Assembly: GCF_964213995.1 (NCBI RefSeq)
Contig: NC_135804.1
Span: forward strand, 59,768,001 to 59,832,000
DNA from: Mustelus asterias
Taxonomy: Eukaryota
Direction of reading: 5' to 3'
DNA length: 64,000 bases
Shown: piece after piece, positions 9,692 through 62,443 of the stretch
How the letters are laid out: every line of letters starts with the position of its first letter
Numbering within the stretch: position 1 is the first letter of the stretch
Position numbers and translations under genes: made by a program
The notes under the pieces: model-generated
Database searches by the model: none
The model's input: the letters and a program-made list of their open reading frames with translations, nothing else
Told to the model about the DNA's origin: nothing

Positions 9692-12600
9692 TAGAACATA
9701 ACATAGAACAGTACAGCACAGAACAGGCCCTTCGGCCCACGATGTTGTGCCGAGCTTTATCTGAAACCAAGATCAAGCTATCCCACTCCCTATCATCCTG
9801 GTGTGCTCCATGTGCCTATCCAATAACCGCTTAAATGTTCCTAAAGTGTCTGACTCCACTATCACTGCAGGCAGTCCATTCCACACCCCAACCACTCTCT
9901 GCGTAAAGAACCTACCTCTGACATCCTTCCTATATCTCCCACCATGAACCCTATAGTTATGCCCCCTTATAATAGCTCCATCCACCCGAGGAAATCGTCT
10001 TTGAACGTTCACTCTATCTATCCCCTTCATCATTTTATAAACCTCTATTAAGTCTCCCCTCAGTCTCTTCCGCTCCAGAGAGAACAGCCCTAGCTCCCTC
10101 AACCTTTCCTCATAAGACCTACCCTCCAAACCAGGCAGCATCCTGGTAAATCTCCTCTGCACTCTTTCCAGCGCTTCCACATCCTTCTTATAGTGAGGTG
10201 ACCAGAACTGCACACAATATTCCAAATGTGGTCTCACCAAGGTCCTGTACAGTTGCAGCATAACCCCATGGCTCTTAAACTCCAACCCCCTGTTAATAAA
10301 AGCTATCACACAAAAGGCCTTCTTCACAGCTCTATCCACTTGAGTGGCAACCTTCAGAGATCTGTGGATATGGGCTCCAAGAACTCTCTGTTCCTCCACA
10401 GTCTTCAGAACCCTACCTTTGACCCTGTAATCCACATTTAAATCAGTCCTACCAAAATGAATCACCTCACATTTATCAGGGCTAAACTCCATTTGCCATT
10501 TTTCAGCCCAGCTTTGCATCCTATCTATGTCTCTTTGCAGCCTACAACAGCCCTCCACCGCATCCACTACTCCACCAATCTTGGTGTCATCAGCAAATTT
10601 ACTGATCCACCCTTCACCCCCCTCCTCTAAGTCATTAATAAAAATCACAAAGAGGAGAGGACCAAGCACTGATCCCTGTGGCACTCCGCTAGCAACCTGC
10701 CTCCAGTTCGAAAATTTTCCATCCACCACCACCCTCTGTCTTCGATCAGATAGCCAGTTACCTATACAATCGGCCAACTTTCCCTCTATCCCACACCTCC
10801 TCACTTTCATCATAAGCCGACCATGGGGGACCTTAGCAAACGCCTTACTAAAATCCATGTATATGACATCAACTGCCCTACCTTCATCAACACACTTAGT
10901 TACCTCCGCAAAATATTTAATCAAATTTGTGAGGCACGACTTGCTCTTCACGAATCCGTGCTGACTATCCCGGATTAATCCGCATCTTTCTAAATGTTCG
11001 TAAATCCCATCCCTAAGGACCTTTTCCATCAATTTACCTACCACCGAAGTAAGACTAACCGGTCTATAATTACCAGGGTCATTTCTATTCCCTTTCTTAA
11101 ACAGAGGAACAACATTCGCCACTCTCCAGTCCTCTGGCACCATCCCCGTGGACAGTGAGGACCCAAAGATCAAAGCCAAAGGCTCTGCAATCTCATCCCT
11201 TGCCTCCCAAAGAATCCTAGGATACATTTTATCAGGCCCAGGGGACTTATCGACCTTCAGTTTATTCAAAACTGCCAGTACATCCTCCCTCCGAACATCT
11301 ATTTCCTCCAGCCTATTAGCCTGTAACACCTTCGCTTCCTCAAAAACATGGCCCCTCTCCTTGGTGAACACTGAAGAAAAGTATTAATTCATCACCTCGC
11401 ATATCTCTACTGACTCCATACACAAGTTCCCACAACTATCCTTGACCGGCCCTAACCTCACCCTGGTCATTCTTTTATTCCTCACATAAGAGTAAAAAGG
11501 CTTGAGGTTTTCCTTGATCCGACCCGCCAAGGACTTCTCTTGTCCCCTCCTCGCTCTCCTAAGCCCCTTTTTCAGCTCATTCCTTGCTAACTTGTAACCC
11601 TCAATCGAGCCATCTGAACCTTGTTTCCTCATCCCGACATAAGCTTCCCTCTTCTTTTTCACAAGACATTCCACCTCTTTCGTGAACCATGGTTCCCTCA
11701 CTCGGCCATTTCCCCCCTACCTGACAGGGACATACCTATCAAGGACACCCAGTATTTGTTCCTTGAAAACGTTCCACTTTTCATTAGTGCCTTTCCCTGA
11801 CAGTTTCTGTTCCCAACTTATGCCCCCTAATTCTTGCCTAATCGCATCATAATTACCTCTCCCCCAATTGTAAACCTTGCCCTGCCGTACGGCCCTATCC
11901 CTCTCCATTGCAATAACAACAGACACCGAATTGTGGTCACTATCTCAAAAGTTCTCTCCCACAACCAAATCTAACACTTGGCCCGGTTCATTTCCCAGTA
12001 CCAAATCCAATGTGGCCTCACCTCTTGTCGGCCTATCCACATATTGTGTCAGGAAACCCTCCTGCACACACTGCACAAAAACTGCCCCATCCGAACTATT
12101 TGACCTACAAAGGTTCCAATCAATATTTGGAAAGTTAAAGTCCCCGACGACAACTACCCTGTGACCTCCACACATATCCATAATCTGCTTAGCAATTTCT
12201 TCCTCCACATCTCTATTACTATTTGGGGGCCTATAGTAAACTCCTAACAACGTGACCGCTCCTTTCCTATTTCTAACGTCAGCCCATATTACCTCAGTGT
12301 GCAGATCCCCCTCGAAGTGCCTTTCCGCAGCCATTAAACTATCCTTGATTAACAATGCCACTCCTCCATCTCTTTTACCAGCTTCCCTACACTTACTGAA
12401 ACATCTACACCCTGGAACGTCCAACAACCATTCCTGTCATTGTTCTACCCACGTCTCCGTAATGGCCACAACATCGTAGTCCCAAGTACCAATCCACGCC
12501 CCAAGTTCACCTACCTTGTTCTGGATGTTCCTTGCATTGAAGTAGACACGCTTCAACCCACCTTCCTGTCTAACAGTACCCACCCTTGACCCTGATACCT

Positions 12601-22748: not shown

Positions 22749-25060
22749 TTACATCTCTCCCTCTCTCTCTCCCTCGAGTGAGAGAAACTTACAACCTGCT
22801 TGTTTTCTTTCAACCTTTATTCCCCTTTTAACTGTTTTGTTGCGGTAATTGGTGTATTCCTTTAACTGAGTCCAATGCTTCCAGACACCCCTACCTTGCA
22901 TATCTATGCAGGCACAGGTGTCTCCACTGATAATGACCTCATAGGGGCCTTTCCAAATGGGGGCAAATCCAGGTTTTCCTGGTAGTGTTTTTACCATAAC
23001 CTTGCTGCCTGCCGGTGGTACCTCCGGGGTCTGTTCTAGTTTGTTGTGCTCATCTATCACTATTTGTTTGTCCCATACTGTTTTCCGCATATCTTTCAAT
23101 TGGGAGCTTAACTCTAATACATATCGTCTAATCCTGTCCCTTAATGGGCCTACATCTGCATATTTCCCTGATCCATCCACAAACAGGGCCAAATCTGGTG
23201 CCTCCAGGGGCACATCTTTTATTCTACTCTCCTCTACCTCTTCGTCTACGTCCCCACATGAGTGGGGAGACCCTTCACCTAACATTCCTTCTACGGGGTT
23301 CATTCCCATGTCTCGTGCAATGGTGATGGACTTAGTGGGTGGGAGAAGCACTGCCTCCCACTTCGCCCTTCTCATGTTTGAGACAGACCGCAATTTTCCT
23401 GTGTTCAGCATTTCCACCAAGGTATGTTTGGTGCGTAAAACAATATTCCCCGTCATTATGATGGGCTCGCTGACCTTTTTACTACCCATGCCGCACAATC
23501 TAGTGCGGCTATACATCTGGGTAACCCGGTTACTACGGGGCCCTCCGCTGTGGAATAATAACCCACGGGTCGCTGTTTGTCCCCATGGACCTGTGTGACT
23601 ACTGCCGATTAAAACCCCCCTTCGTTATTACAATAAATATGAAAATCTTTACTAGCGTCAGGCAGTCCAAGTTCTGGAGCCTTCATTAGTTCTACTTTTA
23701 GTTTACTATGTACCCTTTCCTGTTCTGATCCCCATTCTATAACTTCTAGAGCGGGTTTCCCCCCTTTTACTAGCCTTTGTATTGGTTCGACGAGCCTTGC
23801 GAATTCTGGTATAAAGTGGCGGCTGTAATTAAACAACCCCAAAACCTTCCTTACCCCTCGGACGGTTACTGGTCTTGGCATTTGCTGTCCAGTGGCATTT
23901 CTTTGGTCCCCTGGGATATCAGGTGTCCCAAATATAATACCTGCGCTTTCCCTATTTGGGCCTTCCTGGGGCTCGCCTTTAGTCCCTGTTCTTTGAAGTG
24001 TTTCAGGTCTGAGTATAGTGCCGTCTGGTGTTCTGCTCTAGTTTCGGAGGCTATTAAGATGTCATCTACATACTGCAGGATTGTGCTCCCCCTCGGGACC
24101 TCTACTTGTTCTAATATCTTACTCATGACCCGGTGAAATATAGCCGGGCTATTGTGGAAGCCTTGCGGGAGCCTCGTCCATGTGTACTGTTTATCACCGA
24201 CGGTAAATGCAAATTTATCTTGTGAATTAAAGTCCAGGGGAATGGACCAAAATCCATTGGCGATGTCTAATACCGTAAAGATTCCATGGGATGGTGATAA
24301 CCCGTTTAAAATGGTAGATGGACTAGCCACGATGGGCTGTAACTTGGGGGTCACTTTATTTAAAGCGGTATAATCAATGGTTAATCTATAACTCCCGTCT
24401 GGTTTAGGCACCGGCCAGGTGGGGGAGTTGGTGGTATTTGTGGTTTCCCGTAGTATCACTCTTTTTACCAATCCCTTTACAAGTTCTTCAACTGCTTTTT
24501 TGGCCTCGGGCTTAATCGGGTATTGTCGGTGTGGTTTATGTTCTGGCCCTTCCATGAGTATAAGGGGAATTTTGACTAATCCAGTATCCAGGTTTGTTTC
24601 CGCCCATACCCCGAGGATTGAGGCGCAAATGGTGCCAAATCCATTACATTCTAACTGCCAGTTGCGTCCAGTTGCAGATGCTGCATGGATGGTTTCTAAA
24701 TGGTTAACATATGTTCCTACCCTGTCTTTTCTCCCATCGGGGCGGGGCCAAATCAATTCGCCTTTCCCGCAATCTATTAAGACTTCGTATTCTTTCATCA
24801 GGTCATTTCCCATAATAGTTCCTTCATTATTTTGACATACATAAAATCGCATAGGTATATACAGGTTATTAATTTCTACTAGGGTGGTTTCCCTTAAGTA
24901 GGCAGGGTCTTCTGTCCGTTCACACCCCTTATATAAATCATTTTGTTTGTGGTGGGCAAGGGTAGATCAGTGATAGATATGGAGGCTCCCGTGTCCACCA
25001 GCATTTCGCATGTCTGCCCCCTACTAGTGCAGACACGTAGATTCTACCCTCCTGTTCATT
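22749..25060 (-). pseudogene. pol: ERV pro-pol (frameshifted; RNaseH/IN core deleted)
   Basis: Protease MLVDTGASIS (~24975-25008) and GTIMGNDL; RT NSPTWPVPKPDGSYRLTIDY, LDIANGFWSIPL, WTRLPQGFHNSP, YVDD; tether; RNaseH LFVDGS fused to IN C-terminal WKGPYEV. Confidence 0.92.
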
Positions 25061-32559: not shown

Positions 32560-33110
32560 ATTTGTTTACTTTTATCTTTGCAATATAGCAAATTCCGTCC
32601 TGATCTAATACAATCTGTCCCTGCAAAACTCACCTATGTGTTTGCAACATCCAAGTTTTACTACTCTGATTAACTTCTGGCCAGCCACACACACCGAACG
32701 CTCTATAAACATACAGTTACCTAACAGTTTGCTGGCAATTCCACAACTCTCATCAAATCGTTTCATCCATTAGCTATGTGTTCGCTGATCTACATTTGCT
32801 CCCAATTAAGCAATGCCATTTGAAATACTTATCCTTCCTATTTACACAGCCTCCTTCCAATCTCTGTGATGTTCTCTAGCCGTAAAGCCGTCGGCTGTAC
32901 CGCACTCTCCAAATTACGGCTCTTTGAGGATTCCAAAACTCCATTATTCCGCCATTGGCAGCCTACACGCCGCTTTCAACGCACCAAGCACTGTATTGCA
33001 CTACCAAAACCTTAATCTCCCCGCCTTTTTCCTCCTCTAATAAACACCTTAACACTTCCCTATTTGAAGTTTTACGGCCCAAGATACCTCGTTGTTCGAT
33101 GAGGTGTCAA
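32560..33110 (+). mobile_element. L2-like LINE 3' fragment
   Basis: Degenerate CTGATCTACATTTGCTCCCAATTAAGCAATGCC motif resembling L2 ORF2 ends. Confidence 0.5.
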
Positions 33111-33144
33111 TTTTTACATTACCATGGCGCTTTTAAACATTTCG

Positions 33145-35619
33145 ACTCAAATTGGACGTGGAGGGCTTGAGGAAGAGTTCTTGGAATGCTGTCGGGATTG
33201 TTTCATTGAACAGTATGTTACAGAACCTACGAGAGAGCGAGCTATCTTGGATCTGGTTCTGTGCAATGAGACAGGTAGGATTAAGGATCTTCTTGTGAAG
33301 GATCCTCTTGGGATGAGTGATCATAATATGGTGGAATTTCTGATACAGATGGAGGGTGAGAAAGTAGGGTCCCAAACCAGTGTCCTCTGCTTGAACAGAG
33401 GGGAGTACGATAGGATGAGGGTGGAATTGGCTAATGTAGACTGGGCGAGCAGACTGGTAGGTAGGACAGCTGAGGAACAGTGGAGGATTTTTAAGGAGAT
33501 TTTTTTAAGTACTCAGCAAAAATATATTCTGGTGATAAAGAAGGACTGTAAGAAAAAGGATAACCAGACGTGGATAACGAAGGAAATAAAGGAGAGTATT
33601 AAAATAAAATCAGATGCGTACAGAGTCGCCAAAAATAGTGGAGAATTAGTGGATTGGGAAAGCTTCAAAGAAAAACAAAGAACGACTAAGAAAGCGATTA
33701 AGAAAGGAAAGATAGATTATGAAACTGAACTAGCTCAAAATATAAAAACTTATAGTAAAAGTTTTTACAAGTATATAAAAAGGAATAGAGTGGCTAGAGT
33801 GAATGTTGGACCCTTGGAAGATGAGAGGGGGGATTTAATAGTGGAAAACGAGGAAATGGCTGAGACTTTAAATAAGTTCTTTGTGTCGGTCTTCACGGTG
33901 GAAGACACAAATAGTTTGCCGAATATTAGAGATCGAGAGTTGGTGGGAGGGGAGGTCCTTAATACAATTACTGTTACTAAGGACGTGGTGCTTGGTAGAC
34001 TAATAGGACTGAAGGTAGACAAGTCCCCGGGCCCGGATGGAATGCATCCCAGGGTACTGAAAGAAATGGCTGAGGTAATAGCAGATGCGTTAGTAGTAAT
34101 TTATCAAAATTCGCTGGACTCTGGGGTAGTGCCGGCTGACTGGAAAACAGCTACTGTTATGCCGCTGTTTAAAAAAGGAAGTAGACAAAAGGCGGGTAAC
34201 TACAGGCCGGTTAGCTTAACGACCGTAGTTGGGAAGATGCTAGAGTCCATTATTAAAGAGGAAATAACAGAGCACCTGAATAAGAATGGTTCGATCAAGC
34301 AGACGCAGCATGGATTCATGAAGGGAAAGTCGTGTTTGACGTATCTACTGGACTTTTATGAAGATGTCACCAGTGCGGTTGACAGAGGGGAACCGGTGGA
34401 TGTGGTGTTTTTAGATTTCCAGAAGGCGTTCGATAAGGTGCCTCACAAAAGGTTGCTGCAGAAGATTGGGGTACACAGAGTTAGGGGTAAGGTGTTGGCG
34501 TGGATTGGGGATTGGCTATCTAACAGGAAGCAGAGAGTTGGGATAAATGGGTGCTTTTCTGGTTGGCAGTTGGTGACCAGTGGCGTGCCGCAGGGATCGG
34601 TGCTGGGGCCTCAATTGTTTACCATTTACATAGATGATCTGGAGGAGGGAACTGAATCTAGGGTATTCAAGTTTGCTGATGACACGAAGGTGAGTGGGAA
34701 AGCGAATTGTGTGGAGGACGCGGAAAGTCTGCAGAGAGATTTGGATAGGCTGAGCGAGTGGGCGAGGATCTGGCAGATCTAATATAACGTTAGCAAATGT
34801 GAGGTTATCCACTTTGGAAGAAATAATAGTAAATTGGAATATTATTTAAATGGAGAAAAATTACATCGTGCGACTGTGCAGAGGGACCTGGGGGTCCTTG
34901 TGCACGAATCGCAAAAACTCAGTCTGCAGGTGCAGCAGGTGATCAAGAAGGCGAATGGAATGTTGGCCTTTATCGCGAGGGGGATAGAATATAAAAGCAG
35001 GGAGGTCTTGCTGCAACTGTACAAGGCACTGGTGAGGCCGCAACTGGAGTACTGTGTGCAGTTTTGGTCCCCTTATTTGCGAAAGGATATATTGGCCTTG
35101 GAGGGAGTGCAGAGAAGGTTCACCAGGTTGATACTGGAGATGAGGGGTGTAGCTTATGAGGAGAGATTAAACAGATTGGGTCTGTACTCGTTGGAGTTTA
35201 GAAGGATGAGGGGTGATCTTATAGAGACATATAAGATAATGAAGGGGCTGGATAGGGTAGAGGTGGAGAGATTCTTTCCACTTAGAAGGGAAACCAGAAC
35301 TAGAGGGCACAGCCTCAAAATAAGGGGGAGGGCCGGTTCAGAACAGAGTTGAGGGGGAACTTCTTCTCTCAGAGGGTAGTGAATCTCTGGAATTCTCTGC
35401 CCATTGAAGTGGTGGAGGCTTCCTCGTTGAATATGTTTAAATCACGGGTAGATAGTTTTCTGATCGATAAGGGAATTAGGGGATATGGGGAGCAGGCGGG
35501 TAAGTGGAACTGATTCGCTTCAGATCAGCCATGATCTTGTTGAATGGCGGGGCCGGCTCGAAGGGCCAGATGGCCTACTCCTGCTCCTATTTCTTATGTT
35601 CTTATCTTATGTTCTTATT
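33145..35619 (+). mobile_element. CR1 LINE, young, 5' truncated (APE C-terminus plus RT), ending ~290 bp upstream of the IgSF gene ATG
   Basis: 552-aa ORF 33124-34782 plus 34834-35352 with PQGSVLGP and FADD; tail (CTTATGTT)n. Confidence 0.95.
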
Positions 35620-35775: not shown

Positions 35776-35910
35776 ACGTATTTTCTTACCAACGGGCATA
35801 GGACTTCAAACGTCACTGCTCTCGTCTCAGATTCAATACTCAGCAGACAATTTGCATAGTGGCAAACACATGGTCAGTGCAGCCAGACATCAGTTGAGCT
35901 TTATCTTGCA

Positions 35911-35971
35911 ATGTTGCCGAATTTGATCTTTCTCTTCATGTTCCTGTCTCTCCCGATGATCATTTTAACAG
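35911..35971 (+). CDS. Leader (signal peptide) exon of VJ-C1-TM gene
   Basis: ATG...MLPNLIFLFMFLSLPMIILT-G then donor ACAG|gtattg; hydrophobic 20-aa signal peptide, phase 1 as is typical of IgSF leaders. Confidence 0.8.
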
Positions 35972-36171
35972 GTATTGAGATATTCTCTATCCCAGATGAC
36001 TTATTAAATAAAGCATTTTTCCACAGTTCTCACATCAGTTCTATTAAATGTAATTCGTATGTATGTAATCGTTTTCTTTTTTGCATTTCCATGCAGAAAT
36101 GTGTACCAAAGTCTCTGGTTTCACATTGAATACAGTTAATTAATACAAACCTTAAATATATTTTCTAACAG

Positions 36172-36492
36172 GTGCTCCAGGAGCTTCGATCAGCGTGTCT
36201 CAAAATCCTAAACAGGTAACTATATTGAGGGGGACAAACATCACCTTCTACTGCATAATCCCCCTTTCTCATGACAATGTGGATGTCGAGGTGCTTTGGT
36301 GGAAACAGGGTGAGAATAAATATATGACAAATGGAACCGATGACAGAAAACGATTCGATTTCAAAATTAAAGGAGGTGGTTTATTTGAGCTGCGAGACGC
36401 GACGCCCCAGGATTCAGGAATCTATCACTGTGCAGTGATCCGTCAGGGAAAAAATAGTGGAAATGGAACAGGATCAAATTTAATTGTCTGCG
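36172..36492 (+). CDS. Ig V-set domain exon with germline-encoded J-like G strand
   Basis: Acceptor ttttctaacag|GT, donor CG|gtaagt. Translation ISVSQNP..TFYC..VLWW..LFELRDATPQDSGIYHC..GNGTGSNLIVC shows B-strand Cys, C-strand Trp, D-x-G-x-Y-x-C and a G-x-G J-like motif. Confidence 0.92.
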
Positions 36493-37098
36493 GTAAGTGA
36501 CTGAAACGACCGGGAATGTCAAGCACTCTGTTTTGCCATTGTTTTATTGTGCTGCCTTTGATGTTGTAAAGCTCTGTGCACAACTGCTAATTACGCAGCG
36601 CAAATGTGGCATTTTATTTGCTGTGTTATTCCACACGGCTTGAAATACTCAGCAAATCAGGGCATGTCTGCGAAGAGAGAGGCAAAGTTAAAGTCTCAGG
36701 TCTATCAACTTTTTGAGTAAAATGTTACCTGATTCATCTCAAAATGTAATTTTTACATCAGATTTCTTAGCCCGAGGTTGGCCCACGTAGTCTCGATTCC
36801 CCAGTCAGAGGAAACAACCTCGCCGAATCTATCCTGTCAAGCACATTTACAATCTTGAATGTTCCAATGACATCACTTTATTCGAACCTTTTCATTCTTC
36901 GCCTGTATGAGTTTCCATAAATTTATATAACCTTGCTTTTATTACCGGTGTCGGACAGATTGTTTTTCTCTTGCGGACGCTGTTGACTGATCTATTCTTA
37001 CGAACATAAAGGGAAGCGAATGACGATATAATTCATCTCTCATTCCTTACTCTGAATATTTCTCCACCAACCTGACTTTCCCCATGTTTTGTTCGCAG

Positions 37099-37410
37099 GT
37101 ACACCAACTCCGTTAAAGATTTTCGCTAAGCATCCCGCAAGCAATTCAACTACGTTCCTGACTCTTGTGTGTCAGACGGCTGGATTTTAGCCGGGTGATT
37201 TGACCCTCCTTTGGTATAAAAATGGCATCAACATCACAACGGAGGGAAATTCGATCAAACACCAGAACGCAGAAGGACTGTATGAAGTTTCCAGCTCTTT
37301 TGAAGAGCAGCACTTTGTGCGGAACGAAGCTGTTTACATCTGTTTGGTAACTCACATCTCCCTCCGGACTCCCGCCATTACCATTCACACTGTTACCAAC
37401 TCCTGCTCAG
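37099..37410 (+). CDS. Ig C1-set domain exon (premature TAG at 37188-37190)
   Basis: Acceptor gttcgcag|GT, donor TCAG|gtatgt. TLVCQTAGF*PGDLTLLWYKNG...GLYEVSSSF...VYICLVTHISL matches the C1-set motifs C-x3-GFYP, W-x-K-N-G and Y-x-C-x-V-x-H. Confidence 0.9.
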
Positions 37411-38712
37411 GTATGTGGCCAACAGGTCAAGAAACAATCTCCAAATTCAGTAAGGGGCATTTCTTGGAGTTTATTGGCACTGGCAATTTTAAAATAATAT
37501 CTCGAAATATCCAATCGAAGAAAATCTTATGTTTTCAGTCAAGATATATTGAATCAAACATATTGTCAAACCTAAGTAATTGTACTGACTTCCGACTGAA
37601 TGCTGTATTACAGCAGGTTCTTAGTTGTTTGAAAATAAAAAAAGAACAAGTGAGTTTTCTCTCCCATCCAATTATTTTACACTATTAACCTATTATTAGA
37701 CATTGAGTTACTTCTTATTTTATTTTCCCAGTATCAGTTTTCCTCCCACGATTTTATAGAAAATGAAGCGCCAGTTTGTTTTATTGGCCTCATGTGAAAG
37801 TGTCAGAAGCCAGCCGTTTAGATAACTCCTATTGGGCTTGTTTCTGTAGAAAGGTAATTACGACCCGTAACGTTAACTCTGTTTCTCTCCACAGATGCTG
37901 CCAGACCTACACCATTTTCTGTTTTTATTTTTCTTTATGCAGCGTTTTGGAGCGGGGAGGCATTTCATAAAATGCATTTCGACTTTAACTGTGATTTGCT
38001 TCCATTAAATGTAACTGAAACTCGTCTGATTAATGATAGCTATTTCCGTTTAATTAATAAATAACCGAAATTTAATTTGAGGGTGAAAGGTAAGCATTAC
38101 TTTGACAGCGATCTCCTTTCCGATGTAGTGACCGTCTGCAGTTAATAAACTGCAGACAACTGAGCATTTATTTTGTTGAATTGAAACAAAAACTACTCCT
38201 TTCAGCCTTGGCAAGTCCAAGTCTCACTAATTTGCCGCGAATTAATCAAATAAGAGTGAAAGAGGCAAAGAAAATTGAAGTTGCAGAAAACGTCCTTCTG
38301 TCAAATGGAATGTTAACCCTCTCACGCCAATGTTTAGAACATCCGAAACTGGTAGTCTCCCTGGCAGATAATTATGGCCTTGTGCCACCATTTGTGAAAG
38401 TAAGTTACTTTTACTTGCAGCTTTTGGTGGTAAATGTCATGGCCCCTGGAGTTCTGGAGTTAAGTCTTTAATTAGAAATACTATATGTAAAATGATTGGG
38501 AGACAAAGATGATCCGGCTGCTCGTTTGTAGTTTTTCCACATCATATCTAGAAAAATGACTTAGGGTTATTTTTAAACGTCCTTCTCCTAGGGCTGTCGT
38601 ACAAAGCTGCTGTTAATATGAGCAGTAGTTTACCCAATCGATTATAGTGAGAGTCAAGGATAGGTAATGCAGAAACAAATTAAAACACAGAACCAACCAT
38701 TTTTTCTTGCAG

Positions 38713-38823
38713 ATTCTGATGGTGGATGTCATTACCTCTGGATTTCTCGGTGTGTCATGGGTGGATTGGTGTTTCTGATGCTTATAATCATCACTGGGGC
38801 GAAATTGATTTCGAAGAATAAAG
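38713..38823 (+). CDS. Stalk/transmembrane exon
   Basis: Acceptor tttttcttgcag|AT, donor AAG|gtaat; 111 nt, phase 1-1. DSDGGCHYLWISRCVMGGLVFLMLIIITGAKLISKNK is a hydrophobic span followed by basic stop-transfer residues. Confidence 0.8.
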
Positions 38824-38889
38824 GTAATCCATAATTTTCATTTTGAGATAAATCTTCAGGGCGATCGTAAGGGCGCCCTCACGTAATCC

Positions 38890-39345
38890 CACATGTCTTT
38901 AGAATGCAGAAGGAGGCCTTTCGGCCCACCCAGATTTCATTGGTTCGCTGAAAGTGCATTCTACCAAACCCCACTCCGTCCCTTTTCTCCGTAATTTTGC
39001 ATGTTATTTCTTTTGAGATATCAATCAAATTCCCCTTCGAATACATCGATCGAACTTGCCTCCAACATCCTTTAAGGAAATTCGTTCCAGACTCCAACCA
39101 CCCTTTGGGTGTACAAAATCCTCACGTAATTTCTATTGCTTTGCCTATTATTTTGAAACTGTGCCCCGTAGTTTTTGATGTACATCTGAGGGAAAAGTGT
39201 TTCTCACTGATTGCCCTGTCCATAGCCCCCAGGACGTGGGATACCTTTATAAACTTTCCTCTCAGCCATCTATTTTCCAAGGAAAACAGACCCAATTTAA
39301 ACAATCTATGCTCATATCATGTTTCCTCAGAATCATTCTTGTGAA
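38890..39345 (-). mobile_element. CR1 LINE 3' fragment
   Basis: LGLFSLENRWLRGKFIKV..TTGHSFKI; CR1 3' stem GAAGGAGGCCTTTCGGCCC. Confidence 0.8.
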
Positions 39346-39880
39346 TTTCCTCAGCAGCCCCACACGATAACTATTCAATTAATATTTATTTGAAGCAAAA
39401 ACAATCTTTTTCTCAAACTCCAGCTGAATTCAGAATGTTAAAATGAAAGAATTGCCACAAATTGAAAAGAATCACATGATTTGGACAACACCAATGACGT
39501 TTTCAAGTAAAATGCTATCAACGTCTCTTCCAGTCGCTGTTCCCGAATGCTGATGAATTCATCGATTCGGATTTCCAACAAAGCACGGAAAATTTAACAC
39601 CTCAAAATCACTGCTGATAGTAATCCAACTTGATCCACCTCGAAATGTGGATTGTTCACTTCAATGTAGGATGCGATTCTTTATTGTGGGATCTGAAGAC
39701 GCTTCACACACTGGTCTACCTAAAAGTTTATTCCTCATATCTTTCTCTGTGGAAAGAAAACGATCTGCGGGTATTATTAATAAAATGATAATTTTCGTTT
39801 TGTTTTACCAATTATCTCTGTATTGGCACTCGCAGCGACACATGTCATACTATGCTTGTAGGGAAATGTCGTGCTTATAT

Positions 39881-40089
39881 TACTGCAGCAATAGTTCAAA
39901 GATGTGGATTCGTAATGCCGAGCAAATGGGGTAAAACTTGCAATGGGATGGTGAGAGTTTGAATTCAGCTGATATATATATAATATATATATATATATCA
40001 GCTGAATTCAAACTCTCACCATCCCATTGCAAGTTTTACCCCATTTGCTCGGCATTACGAATCCACATCTTTGAACTATTGCTGCAGTA
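39881..40089. repeat. Perfect inverted repeat (~100-bp arms) with (TA)n centre, followed by a (TA)n tract
   Basis: 39881-39981 is the reverse complement of ~39989-40089; AT microsatellite continues to ~40135. Confidence 0.95.
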
Positions 40090-47449: not shown

Positions 47450-49512
47450 AAAGAACAAAGAACAATACAGCACAGGAACAGGCCCTTCGGCCCTCCAAGC
47501 CCGCGCCGCTCCCCGGTCCAGGATTGAATCCTGAATCCAGGATCCCCGCCCAATTTTCCAGCCTATCTACATACCAATATCCTATCCACCGAGCTGTCCC
47601 TCACAGCTACGATGCTTTGTTCATTACAACCTATTAACTTACCCCCACCCCCCCATTCCAGACCATGTGATCTCCAGGGAGAGGCGAAAACCCAGAGTGA
47701 AAAACCCCAGGGCCAATATGGGGAAAAGAAAATCTGGGAAATTCCTCTCCGACCCCCTGAGGCGATCGAAACGAGTCCAGGAGATCACAATGGCCCCGAT
47801 CGGAAAATGCTTCCCAACCCTAGTCATTTCCACTTCCACGAACACCATATGAATTCCCTGTCCCCGAGACAGGTTCCCAACTATCCGCAGTCTCACTCTG
47901 TACTGGCACCAGCAAGATGATCGTAGAATGAAGCCTTGAAACGAGAAACCAGGAACAATTAGCCCGCGCCGCTCCCTGGTCCAAACTAGACCACTCTTTT
48001 GTATCCCTCCATTCCCACTCCGTTCATATAGCTGTCTAGATAAGTCTTAAACGTTCCCAGTGTGTCCGCCTCCACCACCTTGCCCGGCAACACATTCCAG
48101 GCCCCCACGACCCTCTGTGTGAAATATGTCCTTCTGATATCTGTGTTAAACCTCCCCCCCTTCACCTTGAACCTATGACCCCTCGTGAACGTCACCACCG
48201 ACCCGGGGAAAAGCTTCCCACCGTTCACCCTATCTATGCCTTTCATAATTTTATACACCTCTATTAAGTCTCCCCTCATCCTCCGTCTTTCCAAGGAGAA
48301 CAACCCCAGTTTCCCCAATCTCTCCTCATAACCAAGCCCCTCCATACCAGGCAACATCCTGGTAAACCTCCTCTGTACTCTCTCCAAAGCCTCCACGTCC
48401 TTCTGGTAGTGTGGCGACCAGAACTGGACGCAGTATTCCAAATGCGGCCGAACCAACGTTCTATACATCTGCAACATCAGACCCCAACTTTTATACTCTA
48501 TGCCCCGTCCTATAAAGGCAAGCATGCCACATGCCTTCTTCACCACCTTCTCCACCTGTGACGTCACCTTCAAAGATCTGTGGACTTGCACACCCAGGTC
48601 CCTCTGCGTCTCTACACCCTTTATGGTTCTTCCATTTATCGTGTAGCTCCTCCCTACATTATTCCCACCAAAATGCATCACTTCGCATTTATCAGGATTG
48701 AACTCCATCTGACATTTCCTTGCCCAAATTTCCAGCCTATCTATATCCTTCTGTAGCCTCTGACAATGTTCCTCACTATCTGCAAGTCCTGCCAGTTTTG
48801 TGTCGTCCGCAAACTTACTGATCACCCCAGTTACTCCTTCTTCCAGATCATTTGTATAAATCACAAACAGCAGAGGTCCCAATACAGAGCCCTGCGGTAC
48901 ACCACTAGTCACAGGCCTCCAGCCGGAAAAAGACCCTTCCACTACCACCCTCTGTCTTCTATGACCAAGCCAGTTCTCCACCCATCTAGCCACCTCCCCC
49001 TTTATCCCATGGGATCCAACCTTTTTCACTAGCCTACCATGAGGGACTTTGTCAAATGCTTTACTAAAGTCCATATAGACAACATCCACGGCCCTTCCTT
49101 CGTCAACCATTTTGGTCACTTCTTCAAAAAACACCACCAGGTTCGTGAGGCATGACCTCCCTCTCACAAAACCATGTTGACTATCGTTAATGAGTTTATT
49201 CCTTTCTAAATGCGCATACATCCTATCTTTAAGAATCTTCTCCAACAACTTCCCCACCACGGACGTCAAGCTCACCGGCCTATAATTACCCGGGTTATCC
49301 TTCCTACCTTTCTTAAATAACGGGACCACATTGGCTATCCTCCAATCCTCTGGGACCTCACCTGTGTCCAGTGACGAGACAAAGATTTGCGTCAGAGGCC
49401 CAACTATTTCACCTCTCGTCTCCCTGAGCAGCCTTGGATAGATTCCATCAGGCCCTGGGGATTTGTCAGTCTTTATATTCTCTAACAAACCTAACACTTC
49501 CTCCTTTGTAAT
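47450..49512 (-). mobile_element. CR1 LINE, young, 5' truncated, uninterrupted 503-aa RT ORF, extended 3' UTR
   Basis: ORF 47986-49497; tail (TTCTTTG)n; candidate TSD TGTTAC at 47444-47449 / 49514-49519. Confidence 0.95.
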
Positions 49513-52424
49513 ATGTTACCTTAAACATATATCACATTCTTCGTTTCAATAGATGACACCACTCCCACAACCAGATTGCTACGGACATACTGGGAGTAGA
49601 TCTTTGATTCCGTTTTATGCTAACTGCTATTCTATTCTCATGTTATGTATTTTCCAGTCTCGATTTCCTCTTCCCGTCCCCTTTCAACTTATTGTATCTG
49701 CCCTATTTCTTGTTTGAGTAATCCACCTGACATGCATCTTGCACTGGTTTTGTTTCAGCATAACGTCTACCTTCCTAACACCCAGCAGCCCTGCTTAACA
49801 TTGACTGTCTTTATCTCTTGTTGAAATGTATCTATCCTGGACCCGAAATGTTTCTTCCTTAAAGATTCCCCTATTGTTTCCTGAATTAACTTGTGCTCAA
49901 TTTTCATGTTGTAATATAGTACAGGCTAAATATAATCTCTTAATTAAAGCAGAGATAAATAAAACCACACATTTTTCACCCATGTTTCCCATCTCCTTAA
50001 AGACATTTCGGGTGGAGTACAATAGACCTTTTATATGGCTTTGACACAGAACGTGCGTTGGGGAGGTCAACCAAAAGACAAATTTTACCCTCATCAGAGG
50101 CCTACAACTTCAGGTCACTGATGAAAGATCAAGAATGGAAACCGTAACTTTGTATCCACCTCTTTGTTTCAAAGGAGTGTAAACCCAGTTGTCGCGTTCC
50201 ACCACTGACTGGTTGAAATTGAACAAAATCAAGAAATCCACATTGAAATGTTGGTGACCGTATATTCTTGTCAGATTAACCCATTATGAGGAGTCGTTGG
50301 ACGTCTCCCAAGAGAGGAATGCTGTGTAAAAGCAAAGCATTTGTTTGTGTCACAGTATCACAGTCAAGTGCATTGCTTATCTGTTTTTTTCTTCAGACGG
50401 AATGACTCTGAGGAAGCGTACGAGGCTATTCAACCTTTCAGTTCGTTTCTGACGTTAACTTAAAGCTTGGCTGATCCATGCCTGAACCCCCAATTTATTC
50501 ATTGTTGCGCCACATACCTTGAAATCTTTATCCAAGAAACATGTGTCCATCTAAATTCTTGATTAGCTCAACGGGTTTCTGAGAGTTGCAAATATCCATT
50601 ACAATTTGTTTGAAAATGAATATGTGCAATATTCATATTATAGTAGTTCTTATTAACTATTAACTTGTATTTGCTCAAGTGATTTTTGTATTTATTATCT
50701 CACCCTACACTAGGTTCATTTAGGCGTTTATTTTATAAATATGATTAGCATTCCACAATGCCATGTGCAAGGCGACAAAATATGGAGAGCTGTTTTTCAG
50801 CATTTGAGTGTGTACAGTGTTCTGGTGGTAAGTCATCAGCCTGACTATTTCTCCCCTTACAAATTTCTCCCGGGTTGCACTACAGGTCCAGCATTTTGCT
50901 GTTTTCGCTTCCGATTTTCAGCATCATCTATGTTTCATTTCTTATTTCATGAGGTGGAATGTTTTGGGAGATAACTAACTGCAGCCGAAGTGCTGACGAC
51001 TCAGGCTTCTGCTACAGATGGTGGAGTGCATTGTGAATGAGCTGTGGGGAGAGCAAGGGTGAAGAAGAGTATCATCATATATTGTGATGGGGTTGAATGT
51101 AACCAAATGGAGTGGGATTTATTTCCGGTGGAAATTAATGCCCGGCATAGATCATTAGGGATCAGTGTCAGTTTTATTTATGGCATGAATTATTTGTGGT
51201 TTTGTATGCACCCCAAACGTTCGGTTAAAGGGATTATGTCGACGTAAGGGCAAGGTAAAACGAACCGGTCGTGTTGCAATCAACCTCAGCGTAAGTTATA
51301 CCTGAATACTATGTGCCAACTTCTATATATAAAAGTTTTCACTTTGCAGACCTCTATAAGATACATTGCATTTCCCGACTTTACTCTGTATTTACGGCAG
51401 ACTGATTTTTTTTCAACAATTGCTCCAAATACAAAGTACTGCGGATGCTGGAAATATAAAACGATTATCCGACATCTGAAGAATAATCACGACCTGAAAT
51501 GTTGTCTCAGTTTCTCTTTTCATAGATGCTACCAGAGCCCCTTAACACTTCTACATTTCCGTTTTTATTTAATATTATATTTGAAATGAACAGACACTGG
51601 TGAAAGTTCTAGGTGTTATTTGAACTTAAATTCTACTCGTATTCATTTGAGACTTTAACCATTTAGGCAATACGAGATAGTTTGGCGAATGAACTCAGGA
51701 AATCTTCAACAAATTGCAGATTAATTCCTCCTAAAGACAGGGCGGGAATTGGCGAGCGTCCGAGGGCTTTTGCATTTCGGTTCAGACTTTGGGCACACAC
51801 TAAATCTCCAGGCGGCATGTTACGGGACCGTCCCGTCCATCGATGGGCGGTTCGAGCCCGGAAATGGGCGAGAGGCTGAATAATTTATCTAAATATACTT
51901 AAATGTGAATTTACATTTTAGCGAGTCCAGCGCTCATATAAATGAGAACAAGCACAAAGACAGAACACGCCTTAAGCCAATTGAATATCAGCCTTGCCGC
52001 AATTAGGCCAGTTAGAATGCAATAACAACATTGCCCACCATATGAGTTGTGACTTGGAATAAGTTAAATGGCAGAAGCTTTCACTGACCAAGTTGCACAG
52101 CAAGTGCCGCTGCACTGAGGGAAACAGAAATTACAGTGAAAGAAATGTTAAATTAAATTGATCTCCGACCCAAAAGTAGAAGTCTAGCATGGATCACTGA
52201 CTTTTGATGGAGAGAGGGGTGATAAAGTAAAAGGGAGAGGGGAGAATTAAAAGGGATCAGTTCCGAAAAATGTAACAATATTTTTCTGTTGACGCCATTG
52301 TTTTCAGTGCACATGGATGGATACCCAGTTTTGTCTTCTTTTAGCGGCAACGTATTAGCTACACAGATAATATTTTGTTATCTTCAGTCCATTGGTGGAT
52401 ATTCAGATGATAGATAATAATATA

Positions 52425-54949
52425 TAGGCCGCCCAATCGTGACACGGAGGTGGAGGAGCAGATAGGGAAACAGATCCTGGAGAGTTGCAATAATAGCAGA
52501 GTTGTTGTGATGGGAGACTTTAATTTCCCAAACATAGATTGGAATATCCCTCGGGTAAGAGGATTGGATGGGGAGGAGTTCGTTAGGTGTGTTCAGGAGG
52601 GTTTCCTGACACAGCATGTGGACATGCCTACAAGAGGAGAGGCTGTACTTGATCTGACACTGACCAATGAGCCTGGACAGCTGTCAGATCTCTCAGTGGG
52701 AGAGCATCTTGGGGATAGCGATCATAACTCTATCTCCTTTATGCTTGCATTGGAAAAAGAGAGGATCAGGCAAGATAGGAAAGCGTTTATATGGAGTAAG
52801 GGGAAATATGAAGACATGAGGCAGCAAATTAGAGGAGTAAATTGGAAGGAGGTATTCTCGGGAAAATCTACTCAAGAGAGGTGGCAGTTTTTCAAGGAAT
52901 GTCTGTCTAGGGTTCCACAGGACAATGTTCCGAGCAGACAGGGAGGAGTTTGTAGGTTAAAGGAACCGTGGTGCACGAAAGCTGTGCAGGACCTAGTCGA
53001 GAAGAAAAGGAAAGTGTACAAAAGGTTCAGAGAGCTTGGTGAAGATAGGGATCTGGATGACTATACGGCTTGTAGGAAGGGACTAAAGAAGGAAATTAGG
53101 AGAGCCAGAAGGGGTCACGAAAAGGCCTTGGCAAGGAGAATTAAGGAAAACCCCAAGGCATTCTATAAATATGTGAAGAGTAAAAGGATGAGACGTGAAG
53201 GAATAGGGCCTATAAAAATCAGTACGGAACCAGTAGAAATGGCAGAAGTGCTAAATGAGTATTTTGCCTCGGTTTTCACAGGAGAAGGACATGGGTGGAT
53301 GTACTGTGGGCTTGCGGTAGACTGAAAAGATTGAGTATGTGGACTTTAACAAAGAGGTTGTGCTGCAATCTTTGAATGGCATTAAGATAGATAAGTCGCC
53401 GGGTCCGGATGGGATGTACCCCAGGTTACTGTGGGAGACGAGGGAAGAGATTGCAGAGCCTCTGGCGATGATCTTTGCGTCGTCGATGGAGACGGGAGAG
53501 GTGCCGGAGGATTGGAAGATTGCGGATGTGGTTCCTATTTTCAAGAATGGGAATAGGGATAGCCCAGGAAATTACCGACCAGTGAGTCTAACCTCAGTGG
53601 TTGGTAAGCTGATGGAGAGGATCCCGAGGGACAAGATTTATGAGCATTTGGAGAGGTTTAGTATGCTCATGAATACTCAGCATGGCTTTGTCAAAGTCAG
53701 ATCGTGCCTTACGAGCCTGGTGGAGTTCTTCGAAAATGTGACAAAACGCATTGACGAAGGGAAAGCGGTAGATGTGGTTTATATGGATTATAGCAAGGCG
53801 TTCGATAAGGTCCCCCATGCAAGGCTTCTAGAAAAAGTGAGAGGGCATGGGATCCAAGAGGCTGCTGCCCTGTGGATCCAGAACTGGCTTGCCCAAAGGA
53901 GGCAGAGAGTGTGTATAGATGGGTCTTTTTCTAAATGGACGTCGGTCACCAGTGGTGTGCCCCGGGGATCTGTTCTGGGACCCTTGCTATTTGTCATTTT
54001 CATAAATGACCTGGATGAGGAAGCGGAGGGATGGGTTAGTAAGTTTGCCAATGACGCGAAGGTTGATGGGGTTGTGGATAGTCTGGAGGGATGTCAGAAG
54101 TTACAGAGGGATATAGATAGGATGCAAGACTGGGCGGAGAAGTGGCAGATGGACGTCAACCCAGATAAATGCGTCGTGGTCCATTTTGGCAGGTCAAATG
54201 GGATGAAGGAGTACAATATTAAGGGAAAGACCCATAGTACTGTGGAGGATCAGAAGGACCTTGGATTCCGAGTCCATAGGACTCTAAAATCGGCCCCGCA
54301 GGTGGAGGAGGTGGTTAAGAAGGCGTATGGTGTGCTGGCCTTTATCAATCGAGGGATTGACTTTAGGAGTCCGGGGATAATGATGCAGCTATATAAGACC
54401 CTCGTCAGACCCCACTTGGAGTACTGTGCTCAATTCTGGTCGCCTCATTACAGGACGGATGTGGAAAAGATTGAAAGGGTGCAGAGGCGATTTACAAGGA
54501 TGTTGCCTGGATTGAGTGGCATGCCTTATGAGGATAGGCTGAGGGGGCTCGGTCTTTTCTCCTTGGAGAGACGTAGGATGAGAGGAGACCTAATAGGGGT
54601 ATATAAGATGTTGAGAGGCATGGATCGGGTGGACTCTCAGAGGCTTTTTCCCAGGGTGGAAATGGCTGCTACGAGAGGACACAGGTTTAAGGTGCTGGGG
54701 GGTAGGTACAGGGGAAATGTTAGGGGGAAGTTTTTCACACAGAGGGTGGTGGGCGAGTGGAATCGGCTGCCGTAAGTGGTGGTGGAGGCAAACTCAATAG
54801 CATCTTTTAAGAAACTCCTGGATGAGTACATGGGACTTAATAGGATAGAGGGTTATAGATAGGCCTAAAAGTTAGGGATATGTTCGGCACAACTTGTGGG
54901 GCCGAAGGGCCTGTTTTGTGCTGTAGTTTTCTATGTTTCTATGTTTCTA
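52425..54949 (+). mobile_element. CR1 LINE, 5' truncated (APE partial plus RT, frameshifted)
   Basis: ORFs 52450-53325 (VMGDFNFP) and 53339-54775 (PRGSVLGP, FAND); tail (CTATGTTT)n. Confidence 0.95.
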
Positions 54950-59485: not shown

Positions 59486-62285
59486 AGCAGGGACTTAAAG
59501 TGGAAGTCCCTTGCCTGTGTGTTTACAAATGGGAGTGTGCTACCTCTTCAATGAAATTGGATGACAAGATGTTGTGATGGTTTTGCTTTTGCAAAACTCT
59601 TCATCATTTCCATCTCCAAATTTACGATATACAGTGGGAGGATAAGAATCAGCTTAATAAGGAAGATTCCTCACCAAGTGCCCAGAATTTGTTTAAAGTT
59701 GGCTTTTCTGGCTGATTTTGGACCATATGCAGAAGCTGTAACTTCTGAGTCACTGAGATCAGTGTTACGGTATTTTAGCATATAGAAAAAATGCAATACG
59801 TGTGGGAGATGTAAACTTAACTTTCCTAAATCTTGTGCAATCATTAGTAAAAAATAAAGACAGACAATGTATGCAGGAAGATGCCTTCAGTCATAGAAAG
59901 AAATTAATTAAATAATTAAATGTCAATAGACGAAACGGTTAGATTTTTCCTGTTGTAACGATAGTGCTGTTCGGAAAGGTACAGTGACGTGTAAAATAGG
60001 ACATCCGTTGCACGTGTGTGTCGCTATAATTATACATTGAAACGCGATGTAAAATAACTGCTGCTATTGAATTTTAGATACGTCCACAGTGTGTTGCAAT
60101 GTTGTTACATTTAGAACCGACATGTTCGCATTTAGAGAAGACCGAGTGAAATACGTCCACTGCCAAGTTCCAATCGTCAATACGCCTTGTCAGTATTTCG
60201 CAATGTATAAGTGTAGCTCAAAGCAGAAACTTACAAACCCCCAGCAATTGGTTTGCACGTTATCAGCTTATCCAGATAAAGAGCCAACACAATAATCTTT
60301 TACATACCGTAAGTAGAGGTGCCACTATTTGGGTTAATTTAGCATCAAAATTATTTACACTACTTTGTTTCCGTATTGAGTCAATTATTGTTTTTCAGGT
60401 CAGAAAATTAAATGTTCGGTAAACCAAAGTATTATGACAGTTGAACAGTTGCCCATTTACTTGCATTTTTCAGGATCCATCTCTTTCCGGACAAATGTTT
60501 TGTCGTCAGCCTAACTAAACGGATCAAATCCCAACGGATTAAAAAGAAAGAATGAACATGGCTTCATCTGTGGAAGTATTTGAAGAAACAAATAAGACAA
60601 CAGAGAAAGAAGCTGCAGAAAATGCCGACTGTCTGGAGAAAGAAAATGACAATCTAGCACTATAGGAGAATGACGCTTGGATGAAGAATACATGGACTTA
60701 ATTGCAAAATGGAATTCGATGCGTACCCATGAAGGAGAACTTTGATTGCTCTGGAGAAAAAATCAGGAGTGGGAATAATTGGGCAATGCTGTCAAATTGC
60801 CAGCACGGATCAAACGGTCGCCTTCTCAGATGCAGGATTCCATAATTCGACATGGTGTCATGTGGGAATAGATGTTTGTAAAGCAAGAAACAACTCGAAC
60901 CTACTTTCAGTAAGTTGATAGGGAAATCCAAGTATTCAGCTTCACCCCTTTTCTATCAGGAGCATCAGCTGAACTGGATGTGACGCACTGGCATGTACTC
61001 AACGTGATAACGGGACGTATGAATCTACACGCAGGTTTTTCTGCGTTACTGAACAAAGTGAACACTGATCGTTAATTTGTTAGAATTCGTAGAAAACCGA
61101 TTTTTAAATTTTACTTTACTATGCAGATAATTAGGTACCACAAGACACAATGTATCGTTGTAGCCGAAGGAACATATTTGTCATTATTTAAAAAAAATAC
61201 TCATTGAACAATACTGTATGACAAGAAAGTTACTTTCTTCCTAAAGCAACGAAAATAAACTTCTTAAAATAACTGAGTAGCAAGTGACTACCATGTACTG
61301 CATTATCTGATAGACACGGTATCATACAGTACAAATACTCCTGCTAGCGGTACGGCAAAGGGACGCGATCAGTGTAGACCACAGAAGTGAATTTCGAAAT
61401 TCAATGGCTAATTGTTTTTCGCCTCCATATACCCAGTCTCTTTTACTCCATTTTGTTTCGCTCTCCGCAGTTGGGCATATTCAGTGCACCTTTCGTTAGC
61501 TTTGCCTTTGTCTGAGCCAGTCAACGCTACACGTGAGTATATCAGGTCATTACCGACTTCCTTTTGCTGCGTCTGCAAGGTCAATGTTTGAAAATATTGT
61601 TTATTGGTTGCTTCGCAAGTCCGCTGTTCAAAAGATTCATCAGAAAGACACGCAGATCATCTTAGAGACAGCATACGGGCAAAGTCAACAGAGACATATT
61701 TACTGCTTTGTCGCATGGGTGTTGATGTTACTTTGTTTCCCCTGATCGATTACTCGGCCCCACCTGAGCATACTCACCTCGTCACGTTTGTGTTTTGGAG
61801 TTTTGCTCAAATCTAATGCGGCATAATGCACACATTCAGACGCATTTTCCTGCTTGGACAAAACGGAAAATTTCTGTTACGCGGCTGGTTCAATGTGTTC
61901 ACCAGTTGACAGTAATTTTGGTCAAACATTGAGTGGATTAACCTGGGATCGAATAGACGTGAGCAAAATATAATTAATTTACATTTTCCTAAGTGCGAGT
62001 ATTAAGACACTCGACACTTTAAACTCCGATACCAAATATGTAAACCAGCCAATTTCACTCGACATAATTGTTACACAAATGTTGAAACAGGCGGCAGCTT
62101 CATTACGTACAACTTATTTTCGATCTGAATGAATAAATGAATTGATGAAAACGCATTAACTGTATTTTCAACGAGGTAAGCAGTTCTCTTTTCTAAGCGT
62201 TTATCACTGTTTGCCAATAAAGCACTCGGTGGCAACTAAATTTCCACATCCGATTGAAATGTAGAATCTCATTGAGACAAAACAA

Positions 62286-62443
62286 GATGCGGAGATGCCA
62301 GCGTTGGACTGGGGTGGGCACAGTAAGAGGTCTCACAGCACCAGGTTAAAGGCTCACCTGATGCAGGAGCAGCGCTCCGAAACCTCGTGATTCCAAAGAA
62401 AAACCCGTTGAACTTTAACCTAGTGTTGTGAGACCTCTTCCTG
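62286..62443 (+). mobile_element. Short Penelope pseudo-LTR hairpin element with hammerhead-like core
   Basis: Same head as 1335-1400; inverted arms ~62321-62351 / 62413-62442; TCAC-CTGATGC-AGGAGCAGCGCTCC-GAAACCTC-GTGA. Confidence 0.75.

Follow-up and report, generated by a model that had tools for sequence, protein, structure and literature searches.

A shark VJ-C1 receptor gene, probably a dead copy of activating type, and its large non-rearranging family in cartilaginous fish

The window analyzed here is a 64,000-nucleotide stretch of the Mustelus asterias genome (G000:C4:59,768,001-59,832,000, C4 being the window's contig, NC_135804.1), and the gene under study was predicted at positions 35911-38823. 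This gene belongs to a large family of VJ-C1 surface receptors of cartilaginous fish that do not rearrange and likely work as activating/inhibitory pairs; the copy in the window is of activating type and likely dead. An original prediction, made from the sequence alone, had described a receptor gene with the architecture of a T-cell receptor (TCR) or immunoglobulin light chain (IgL) without rearrangement. The main feature it overlooked is the split of the family into activating-type and inhibitory-type members. The interest lies in the family, the window copy itself being only a broken member.

Exon structure of the window gene

The predicted arrangement, a single-exon V domain followed by C1 and transmembrane (TM) exons, was confirmed. 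The exon set is leader, V, C1 and TM, and all introns are GT-AG and of phase 1. The features of the gene are:

35911-35971, plus strand: leader exon with ATG, signal peptide and phase-1 donor; the peptide is the same in paralogues L031 and L034.
36172-36492, plus strand: V(J) exon, the whole VJ-type domain in one exon with the J-like end NGTGSNLIV; Pfam V-set; donor used in the X1 contig.
37099-37410, plus strand: C1-set exon with five private non-synonymous codons, the stop included; V-C1 joint present in the X1 contig.
37188-37190, plus strand: premature TAG where GFYP would have its Tyr, with the next exon junction 220 nt downstream; predicted target of nonsense-mediated mRNA decay (NMD).
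38713-38823, plus strand: TM exon of activating type; the helix has an Arg (codon 38748-38750) at its N-terminal end; from exon reading and tblastn.
39534-39553, plus strand: predicted last exon with the short tail KNKVAVPEC-stop, lacking a tyrosine motif; from homology to the last exon of NCBI model P0001 (locus L032).

The last exon lies beyond the end of the original prediction, and its basis is the NCBI paralogue model, not RNA. The V exon of the window gene scores 37.9 bits with Pfam V-set (cut-off 26), and the C1 domain of an intact paralogue scores 47.7 bits with C1-set (cut-off 21). An AlphaFold2 model of the intact paralogue P0001, which matches locus L032, was built from a 58-row alignment and comprises V, C1 and a TM helix with a mean pLDDT of 86.9. 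The window scan gives one C1 in the ectodomain, and V-C1 is also found in NCBI models, as against V-C1-C1 in SIRP.

The prediction that separate J segments and recombination signal sequences (RSS) are missing held up: a scan of 35801-38900 gave one weak intronic site on the minus strand with three nonamer mismatches, and none that is credible. With a single VJ exon and no credible RSS, identity as a TCR gene is not supported. The predicted J-like G strand is present in that the V exon has a GxG-type end. The likeness to a true J stops there: in the motif N-G-T-G-S-N-L-I-V, the Phe/Trp of a true J is replaced by the Asn of an N-glycosylation sequon. At this site NG[TS] occurs in 34 of 56 family V exons and F/W-G in none of the 56. 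Because the Phe/Trp site is usually a glycan sequon, Fab-like V-V pairing is disfavored, and the chains probably do not associate in that manner. A stalk Cys of the window gene's subgroup could allow a disulfide dimer.

The V-C1 joint was recovered in an 899-nt contig (depth 63.9) of run X1, which is RNA-like and taken as RNA by guess only. In this contig position 36492 is joined straight to the start of the C1 exon and the intron is absent, which would be one of the predicted junctions in a close paralogue. The contig differs from the window at 20 listed letters and therefore comes from a paralogue or relative rather than from the window allele. The leader-V and C1-TM joints lie outside the coverage of the X1 contigs, which proves nothing either way.

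A premature stop in the C1 exon

The in-frame TAG at 37188-37190 (codon 158, GF-stop-P) was overlooked in the original prediction. The codon is TAC in the four closest paralogues, and Tyr is found at this site in 44 of the 50 family C1 exons identified by pattern. All contigs covering the site, in four of four runs, have C at 37190 (TAC). The C1 exon of the window copy has five private non-synonymous codons, compared with zero to four in the four siblings. No private change relative to the paralogues was found in its V exon, which is 99.7% identical to that of an intact twin at C4:59.63 Mb. A stop well before an exon junction generally leads to NMD. Because of this stop, a full receptor cannot be made from the window copy: the claim of a VJ-C1-TM receptor gene without rearrangement holds for the architecture, and the copy itself is probably a dead activating-type gene.

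It is unlikely, though not negligibly so, that the window copy still works, whether as a C1-skipping V-TM isoform (an NKp30-like activating form), as a secreted V-only decoy, or because the stop is an assembly error or minor allele. Skipping of C1 would keep the frame, since all exons are of phase 1 and C1 is 312 nt long; a C1-less model (P0072) exists in the family, and the privately unchanged V exon fits as well. The sole spliced contig nevertheless keeps C1 and has Tyr at the stop site, the distance of the stop to the next junction predicts NMD, and four more private replacements in the same C1 exon disfavor a single-base error.

Just 3' of the gene, at 39881-40089, a perfect 102-nt inverted repeat surrounds a (TA)n tract, and the alignment to the twin copy stops at this repeat. 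It reflects either a duplication with inversion at this site or a fold-back artefact of the assembly.

A gene family confined to one contig

A genome search with the window V exon gave 58 matches, all on C4: 28 at 58.79-59.95 Mb, 29 at 67.67-70.02 Mb and one at 54.66 Mb. A C1 exon was found within 10 kb of 56 of the 58. About seven family genes are visibly broken, and the count of 58 may include a few artefacts of false haplotype duplication. Copies in the cluster are 92-97% identical over kilobases and occur in tandems of at least three and in both orientations, for which reason most are taken as real. The suggestion of a poorly characterized shark family, clustered beyond the window, thus proved right.

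A V profile search returned 46 proteins: the best 25 without exception belong to sharks, rays or Callorhinchus, and the remaining 21 are multi-domain DSCAM/LRIG proteins. With a full-length profile 45 proteins were found, 39 of them family members; the six others were a turtle multi-V protein, owl and turtle SIRP-like proteins, a whitefish protein, an unnamed protein and a ray sialoadhesin. A representative library gave 65 clusters at E < 1e-30. Judged from these matches, the window gene belongs to a cartilaginous-fish family with relatives in sharks, rays and a chimaera. Automatic database names for its members conflict (SIRPA-like, SIRPB-like, NCR3LG1-like, IgL-like, tapasin-related, CD276), and at least six contradictory names obscure these genes in databases. 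No description of the family was met in a literature search outside which several key works lay, and one supplement file of an elephant shark study contains no mention of SIRP, ITIM or VJC1 (PMC3964593). There is a minor but real chance that the family has already been described somewhere.

The left flank of the first cluster contains BBS2, AMFR and NUDT21, with NUDT21 about 10 kb from the cluster edge; we take these to be genes of human 16q13. On the right flank only a weak glutathione S-transferase match, under the Pfam cut-off, was found. Linkage to a major histocompatibility complex (MHC) paralogon was not observed for any placed marker. MHC class I exon matches number at least 140, all 140 of them on contig C8, and the ten matches to the paralogon marker PBX, one copy of which is possibly unplaced, are on C8, C13, C19 and two small contigs, with none on C4. 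The immunoglobulin, TCR, MHC and UrIg-like loci are likewise on contigs other than C4.

Contig C8 has three further features. Nearly all of the MHC class I exon matches lie at 21.6-43.4 Mb, a large expansion. At least 12 NKp30-like V exons, also a large expansion, occur at 7.1-7.5 and 20.4-21.2 Mb. Rearranging light-chain-like V and C exons, which we read as kappa-like, form a run at 50.1-51.1 Mb, near a PBX gene at 53.5 Mb.

Activating-type and inhibitory-type ends

TM and tail exons were sought by tblastn 3' of every gene, and classes were assigned by eye. We could class 48 of the 58 genes; in the other ten the TM was not found or too little downstream DNA was present. A basic TM residue (Arg or Lys at the N-terminal TM site) without an exon for a tyrosine motif or immunoreceptor tyrosine-based inhibitory motif (ITIM) was found in 20 genes, including the window gene. 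In 21 genes an uncharged TM is combined with tyrosine-motif tails of the LTYAAL ... TEYAEL type. Seven genes are mixed, two with a basic TM and a tail and five with an uncharged TM and no tail. The association between TM charge and tail gave a Fisher p of 5e-7, for rows that are not independent. On an ectodomain tree of 45 rows, from which three broken genes were excluded, 13 changes in the TM trait are required. Among ten independent pairs from this tree, an average of 7.1 have a tail trait in line with the TM trait and none has one that runs counter to it (median sign-test p 0.016).

Of 18 activating-type ectodomains, 13 have an inhibitory-type partner at 88-98% identity, and the window gene ectodomain is 93.3% identical to that of inhibitory-type L033. 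Near-identical ectodomains with opposite ends are the mark of paired receptors, and by sequence the family looks like one of this class, with activating-type and inhibitory-type members. Both ends occur elsewhere in cartilaginous fish: tyrosine-motif tails in Callorhinchus P0012 and P0016 and sawfish P0007, and an Arg-containing TM with a short tail in catshark P0002 and P0039. P0228, also with an Arg TM and short tail, has the accession series of the Callorhinchus proteins, with no species printed.

One inhibitory-type paralogue reaches into the window, its V and C1 exons being just beyond the window end:

61411-63441 (ends approximate), minus strand: 3' half of the neighboring paralogue, with an uncharged TM exon and tails VHYAAL, LIYSRV and TEYAQL; NCBI model P0009 (XP_078066559.1).

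The layout of C4:58.79-59.95 Mb is that of a mirror: inhibitory-type L076, L069, L072 and L061 lie at its left end (minus strand), and the activating-type partners that they face lie at its right end (plus strand).

Probable exchange between opposite-type pairs

Identities for the V exon, the V-C1 intron and the C1 exon (%) in six opposite-type pairs are:

L075/L076: 97.4 / 82.4 / 97.0
L068/L069: 97.4 / 82.1 / 97.3
L070/L072: 98.4 / 81.3 / 96.6
L064/L061: 94.8 / 72.3 / 97.0
L037/L038: 98.1 / 76.9 / 84.0
L049/L043: 94.0 / 76.4 / 90.1

In same-type control pairs the intron is still 96-98% identical. Since the V exons of opposite-type pairs are far more alike than their introns, gene conversion is indicated. 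A further pair, L032/L033, is 98% identical from upstream of V to just past C1 and 74% thereafter. Such a pattern of identity is what gene conversion between activating-type and inhibitory-type genes would be expected to leave.

Relationship to other immunoglobulin-domain families

Trees were built with the genome's own immunoglobulin-domain genes and representative-library clusters as outgroups. The NKp30-like, UrIg2-like and B7H6-like labels were checked against the PDB, while the IgL and TCR labels are our own reading; the V+C1 tree has no TCR constant domain among its rows. The family forms one clade in the V tree (95/84), the V+C1 tree (100/98) and the C1 tree (92/95). A second V tree, from which 13 rows were removed and to which five were added, places the B7H6 rows inside the family, and V-only monophyly is therefore not stable; a 99/98 branch still separates the family from SIRP, NKp30 and immunoglobulins.

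The approximately unbiased (AU) test rejected a grouping of the family with the genome's own IgL rows (p-AU 0.0004) and with UrIg-like genes, represented by UrIg2-like genes on C16 (p-AU 0.005). The resemblance to TCR and IgL noted originally is thus one of domain order and not of close kinship, and kinship with UrIg-type genes is not supported either. That the window gene is a germline-joined IgL or TCR gene, or a UrIg-type relic near the gene invaded by RAG, is accordingly largely refuted and very improbable. The V(J)-C1-TM order agrees with it, as do the top Foldseek rows, which are IgL and TCR-beta chains (rmsd about 9-16), and a C1 profile search that placed UrIg2 second in the PDB by a multi-domain sum. 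Besides the AU results, it is opposed by the absence of the J Phe/Trp, by the location of the corresponding loci on other contigs, and by the TM exon of the window gene, whereas light chains have neither a TM nor an ITIM tail.

Other groupings were not rejected: SIRP (p-AU 0.23), B7H6 (0.33), NKp30 (0.107), bony VJ-C1 plus NKp30 (0.16), VJ-C1 genes on C17 (0.15) and the turtle multi-V protein (0.38). The best tree places unnamed reptile and bichir VJ-C1 proteins (P0131, P0132, P0152) as sister, with weak support (86/73). When a turtle VJ-C1 protein was compared with the genome, its V best matched the NKp30-like exons on C8 and its C1 the family on C4, with weak E-values. PDB sequence searches with V and C1 profiles brought up chiefly multi-domain proteins and gave no ranking of relatives, and structure searches gave ties among Ig-fold proteins. 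SIRP, NKp30, B7H6 and reptile VJ-C1 proteins are all open candidates for the sister group.

One alternative, compatible with a paired mechanism, is that the genes are true co-orthologues of SIRP, with one C1 instead of two, moved from the SIRP locus and binding CD47; we regard this as possible but rather doubtful. SIRPA-like is the commonest automatic NCBI name, SIRP-alpha clusters rank third to fourth in the Atlas ranking at 0.95-0.96 (tied with IgL-like and others), and the C1 tree leaves SIRP within the same unresolved group (81/36). Against this, the family has one C1 only, and in three trees SIRP forms a starred clade of its own that is not sister to the family. NSFL1C, of the SEP-domain type, neighbors the SIRP locus, and in this genome the four SEP-domain matches all fall on C7 and C20, none on C4. 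Pig SIRP reaches the C4 genes only at E-values of 2e-4 to 1e-3, behind loci on C9, C16 and C24, and a ray V-C1-C1 protein named SIRP-beta-like maps to C17. In favor of this alternative, SIRPs are reported to be joined-VJ genes (PMC11599192) and paired receptors (PMC4770912).

It is improbable that the family consists of B7-family ligands (B7H6-like V-C1 proteins) instead of receptors. Besides the AU result and the second V tree, the names NCR3LG1-like and CD276 given to some members would fit, and B7-H6 is the best structural row (Z 15.2, rmsd 3.1 over 193 residues), with many Ig proteins within about 1-2 Z. However, a distinct B7H6-like gene, whose V has no GxG J motif, is present on C9, and members that divide by ITIM tails and charged TMs are typical of receptors.

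Several other loci and proteins came to light. The top bony-vertebrate V domains against the family profile belong to the turtle multi-V proteins P0147 and P0238, the former with a tyrosine-motif tail; they are possible distant relatives of the family. L097-L100 (C17:53.31-53.42 Mb) comprise two more VJ-C1-TM genes near ray protein P0106, on a contig that also has a CD3-zeta-like exon, and are possible PRARP/VJC1-type candidates. L155 (C17:70.917 Mb) has a V exon with an EIPPP motif, followed 1.7 kb on by a C1 exon; this motif is described for chondrichthyan CD28HL1 in PMC11599192, according to which CD28-family members have a single V domain. L152-L153 (C16:64.41-64.43 Mb) are two head-to-head UrIg2-like genes with a WCGC G strand on a contig other than the MHC contig, and no immunoglobulin or TCR match was found on C16 among the best 150 V-set rows.

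Proposed mechanism and its weight

By analogy, it is likely that the family works like paired receptors of the SIRP/LILR type; ligand and signaling are drawn from established paired-receptor biology. The V domain would bind a cell-surface ligand. In inhibitory members, the tails with ITIM and immunoreceptor tyrosine-based switch motifs (ITSM; LTYAAL ... TEYAEL) may recruit SHP-1/2-type phosphatases. The short-tailed activating members would signal through an adaptor of the FcR-gamma/CD3-zeta type, the TM Arg pairing with an Asp in the adaptor TM; the genome has two zeta/gamma-type adaptor exons with the TM Cys...Asp. Through conversion from inhibitory partners, activating copies could retain a matching binding face, a parallel to the mammalian paired receptors directed against pathogen decoys. 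Births and deaths of activating copies would be frequent, the window copy being one such death.

Several observations weigh against this reading. In the class assignment, "no tail" means no tblastn match in the downstream DNA examined; L052, L047, L048, L055 and L080, in which an Arg lies a few residues away from the aligned position, were scored as uncharged, and L054 and L041 have tails that are non-canonical or partial. A close inhibitory partner is lacking for five of the 18 activating-type genes (44-57%). When 13 close pairs were pooled, pN/pS was 0.39 for V and 0.33 for C1, with no pooled sign of positive selection. The RNA support consists of one contig from one run for the V-C1 joint only, the stop may be present in one allele only, and the V-only clade admits B7H6, as described above.

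We also put forward a wider reading, tentatively and as a possibility well short of an even chance. Cartilaginous fish as a whole may have a paired receptor system, so far undescribed and distinct from SIRP, that predates the split of sharks and chimaeras. It would be built outside the MHC paralogons on a VJ-C1 unit that was never split and is shared with antigen receptors. In sharks it could take the place of KIR/LILR/Ly49 and read self ligands, for example the much-expanded MHC class I, with exon-limited conversion matching activating decoy-catchers to their inhibitory partners.

To our knowledge, little is known of the receptors that balance activation and inhibition in shark natural killer and myeloid cells. 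No passage on SIRP, ITIM or NKp30 was found in the review PMC6795676. The cleanly split 58-gene cluster provides concrete candidates for on/off switches of shark white blood cells, and matched pairs such as L032/L033 are usable in ligand screens. The single-exon VJ-C1 unit is usually seen as an antigen-receptor precursor; here it has expanded separately, off the MHC, into germline receptors.

Other features of the window

Long open reading frames resembling reverse transcriptases of long interspersed nuclear elements (labeled by eye) are present at 33103-35352 (plus strand), 9776-11383 (minus), 47989-49515 (minus) and 52414-54772 (plus). Another long open reading frame, at 22752-24966 (minus), has the look of another retroelement, also labeled by eye.

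Comparison with known systems

The family resembles SIRP-alpha/beta/gamma in its single-exon VJ and C1-set ectodomain, its clustering, and the presence of members with ITIM/ITSM tails alongside members with a charged TM. It differs in having one C1, 58 genes, no SEP-domain neighbor and a separate clade in trees. The TM Arg of the family is near the N-terminal end of the helix, as in the FcR-gamma type, unlike the central Lys with which SIRP engages DAP12.

PRARP is a small family with ITIM/ITSM tails, and NKp30 has a TM Arg and signals through zeta/gamma. PRARP/VJC1 of bony vertebrates shares the non-rearranging VJ-C1 with the shark family; PMC10751288 describes PRARP as linked to the MHC region, whereas the shark family is off the MHC contig. 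NKp30/NCR3 is also alike in its single-exon VJ ending in GxG and in being multigene in sharks. It has no C1 and is MHC-linked (NKp30-like V exons on C8), whereas the family on C4 has a C1 and inhibitory members.

UrIg and UrIg2 of elasmobranchs are likewise non-rearranging VJ-C1 proteins. According to PMC12227049, UrIg has three C1 domains and is secreted, UrIg2 has at least nine, and both are antigen-receptor-related and linked to the MHC or to Ig/TCR. The family has one C1 and is located on C4, not on the MHC contig C8, and its grouping with them was rejected.

LILR, KIR, Siglec-5/14, chicken CHIR and teleost NITR use C2-type, V-only or V-I domains, and none is known to be V-C1. In working, the family is probably like these systems, with opposite ends on near-identical ectodomains, conversion, and birth and death of copies; the comparison is drawn on likeness of working rather than on homology.

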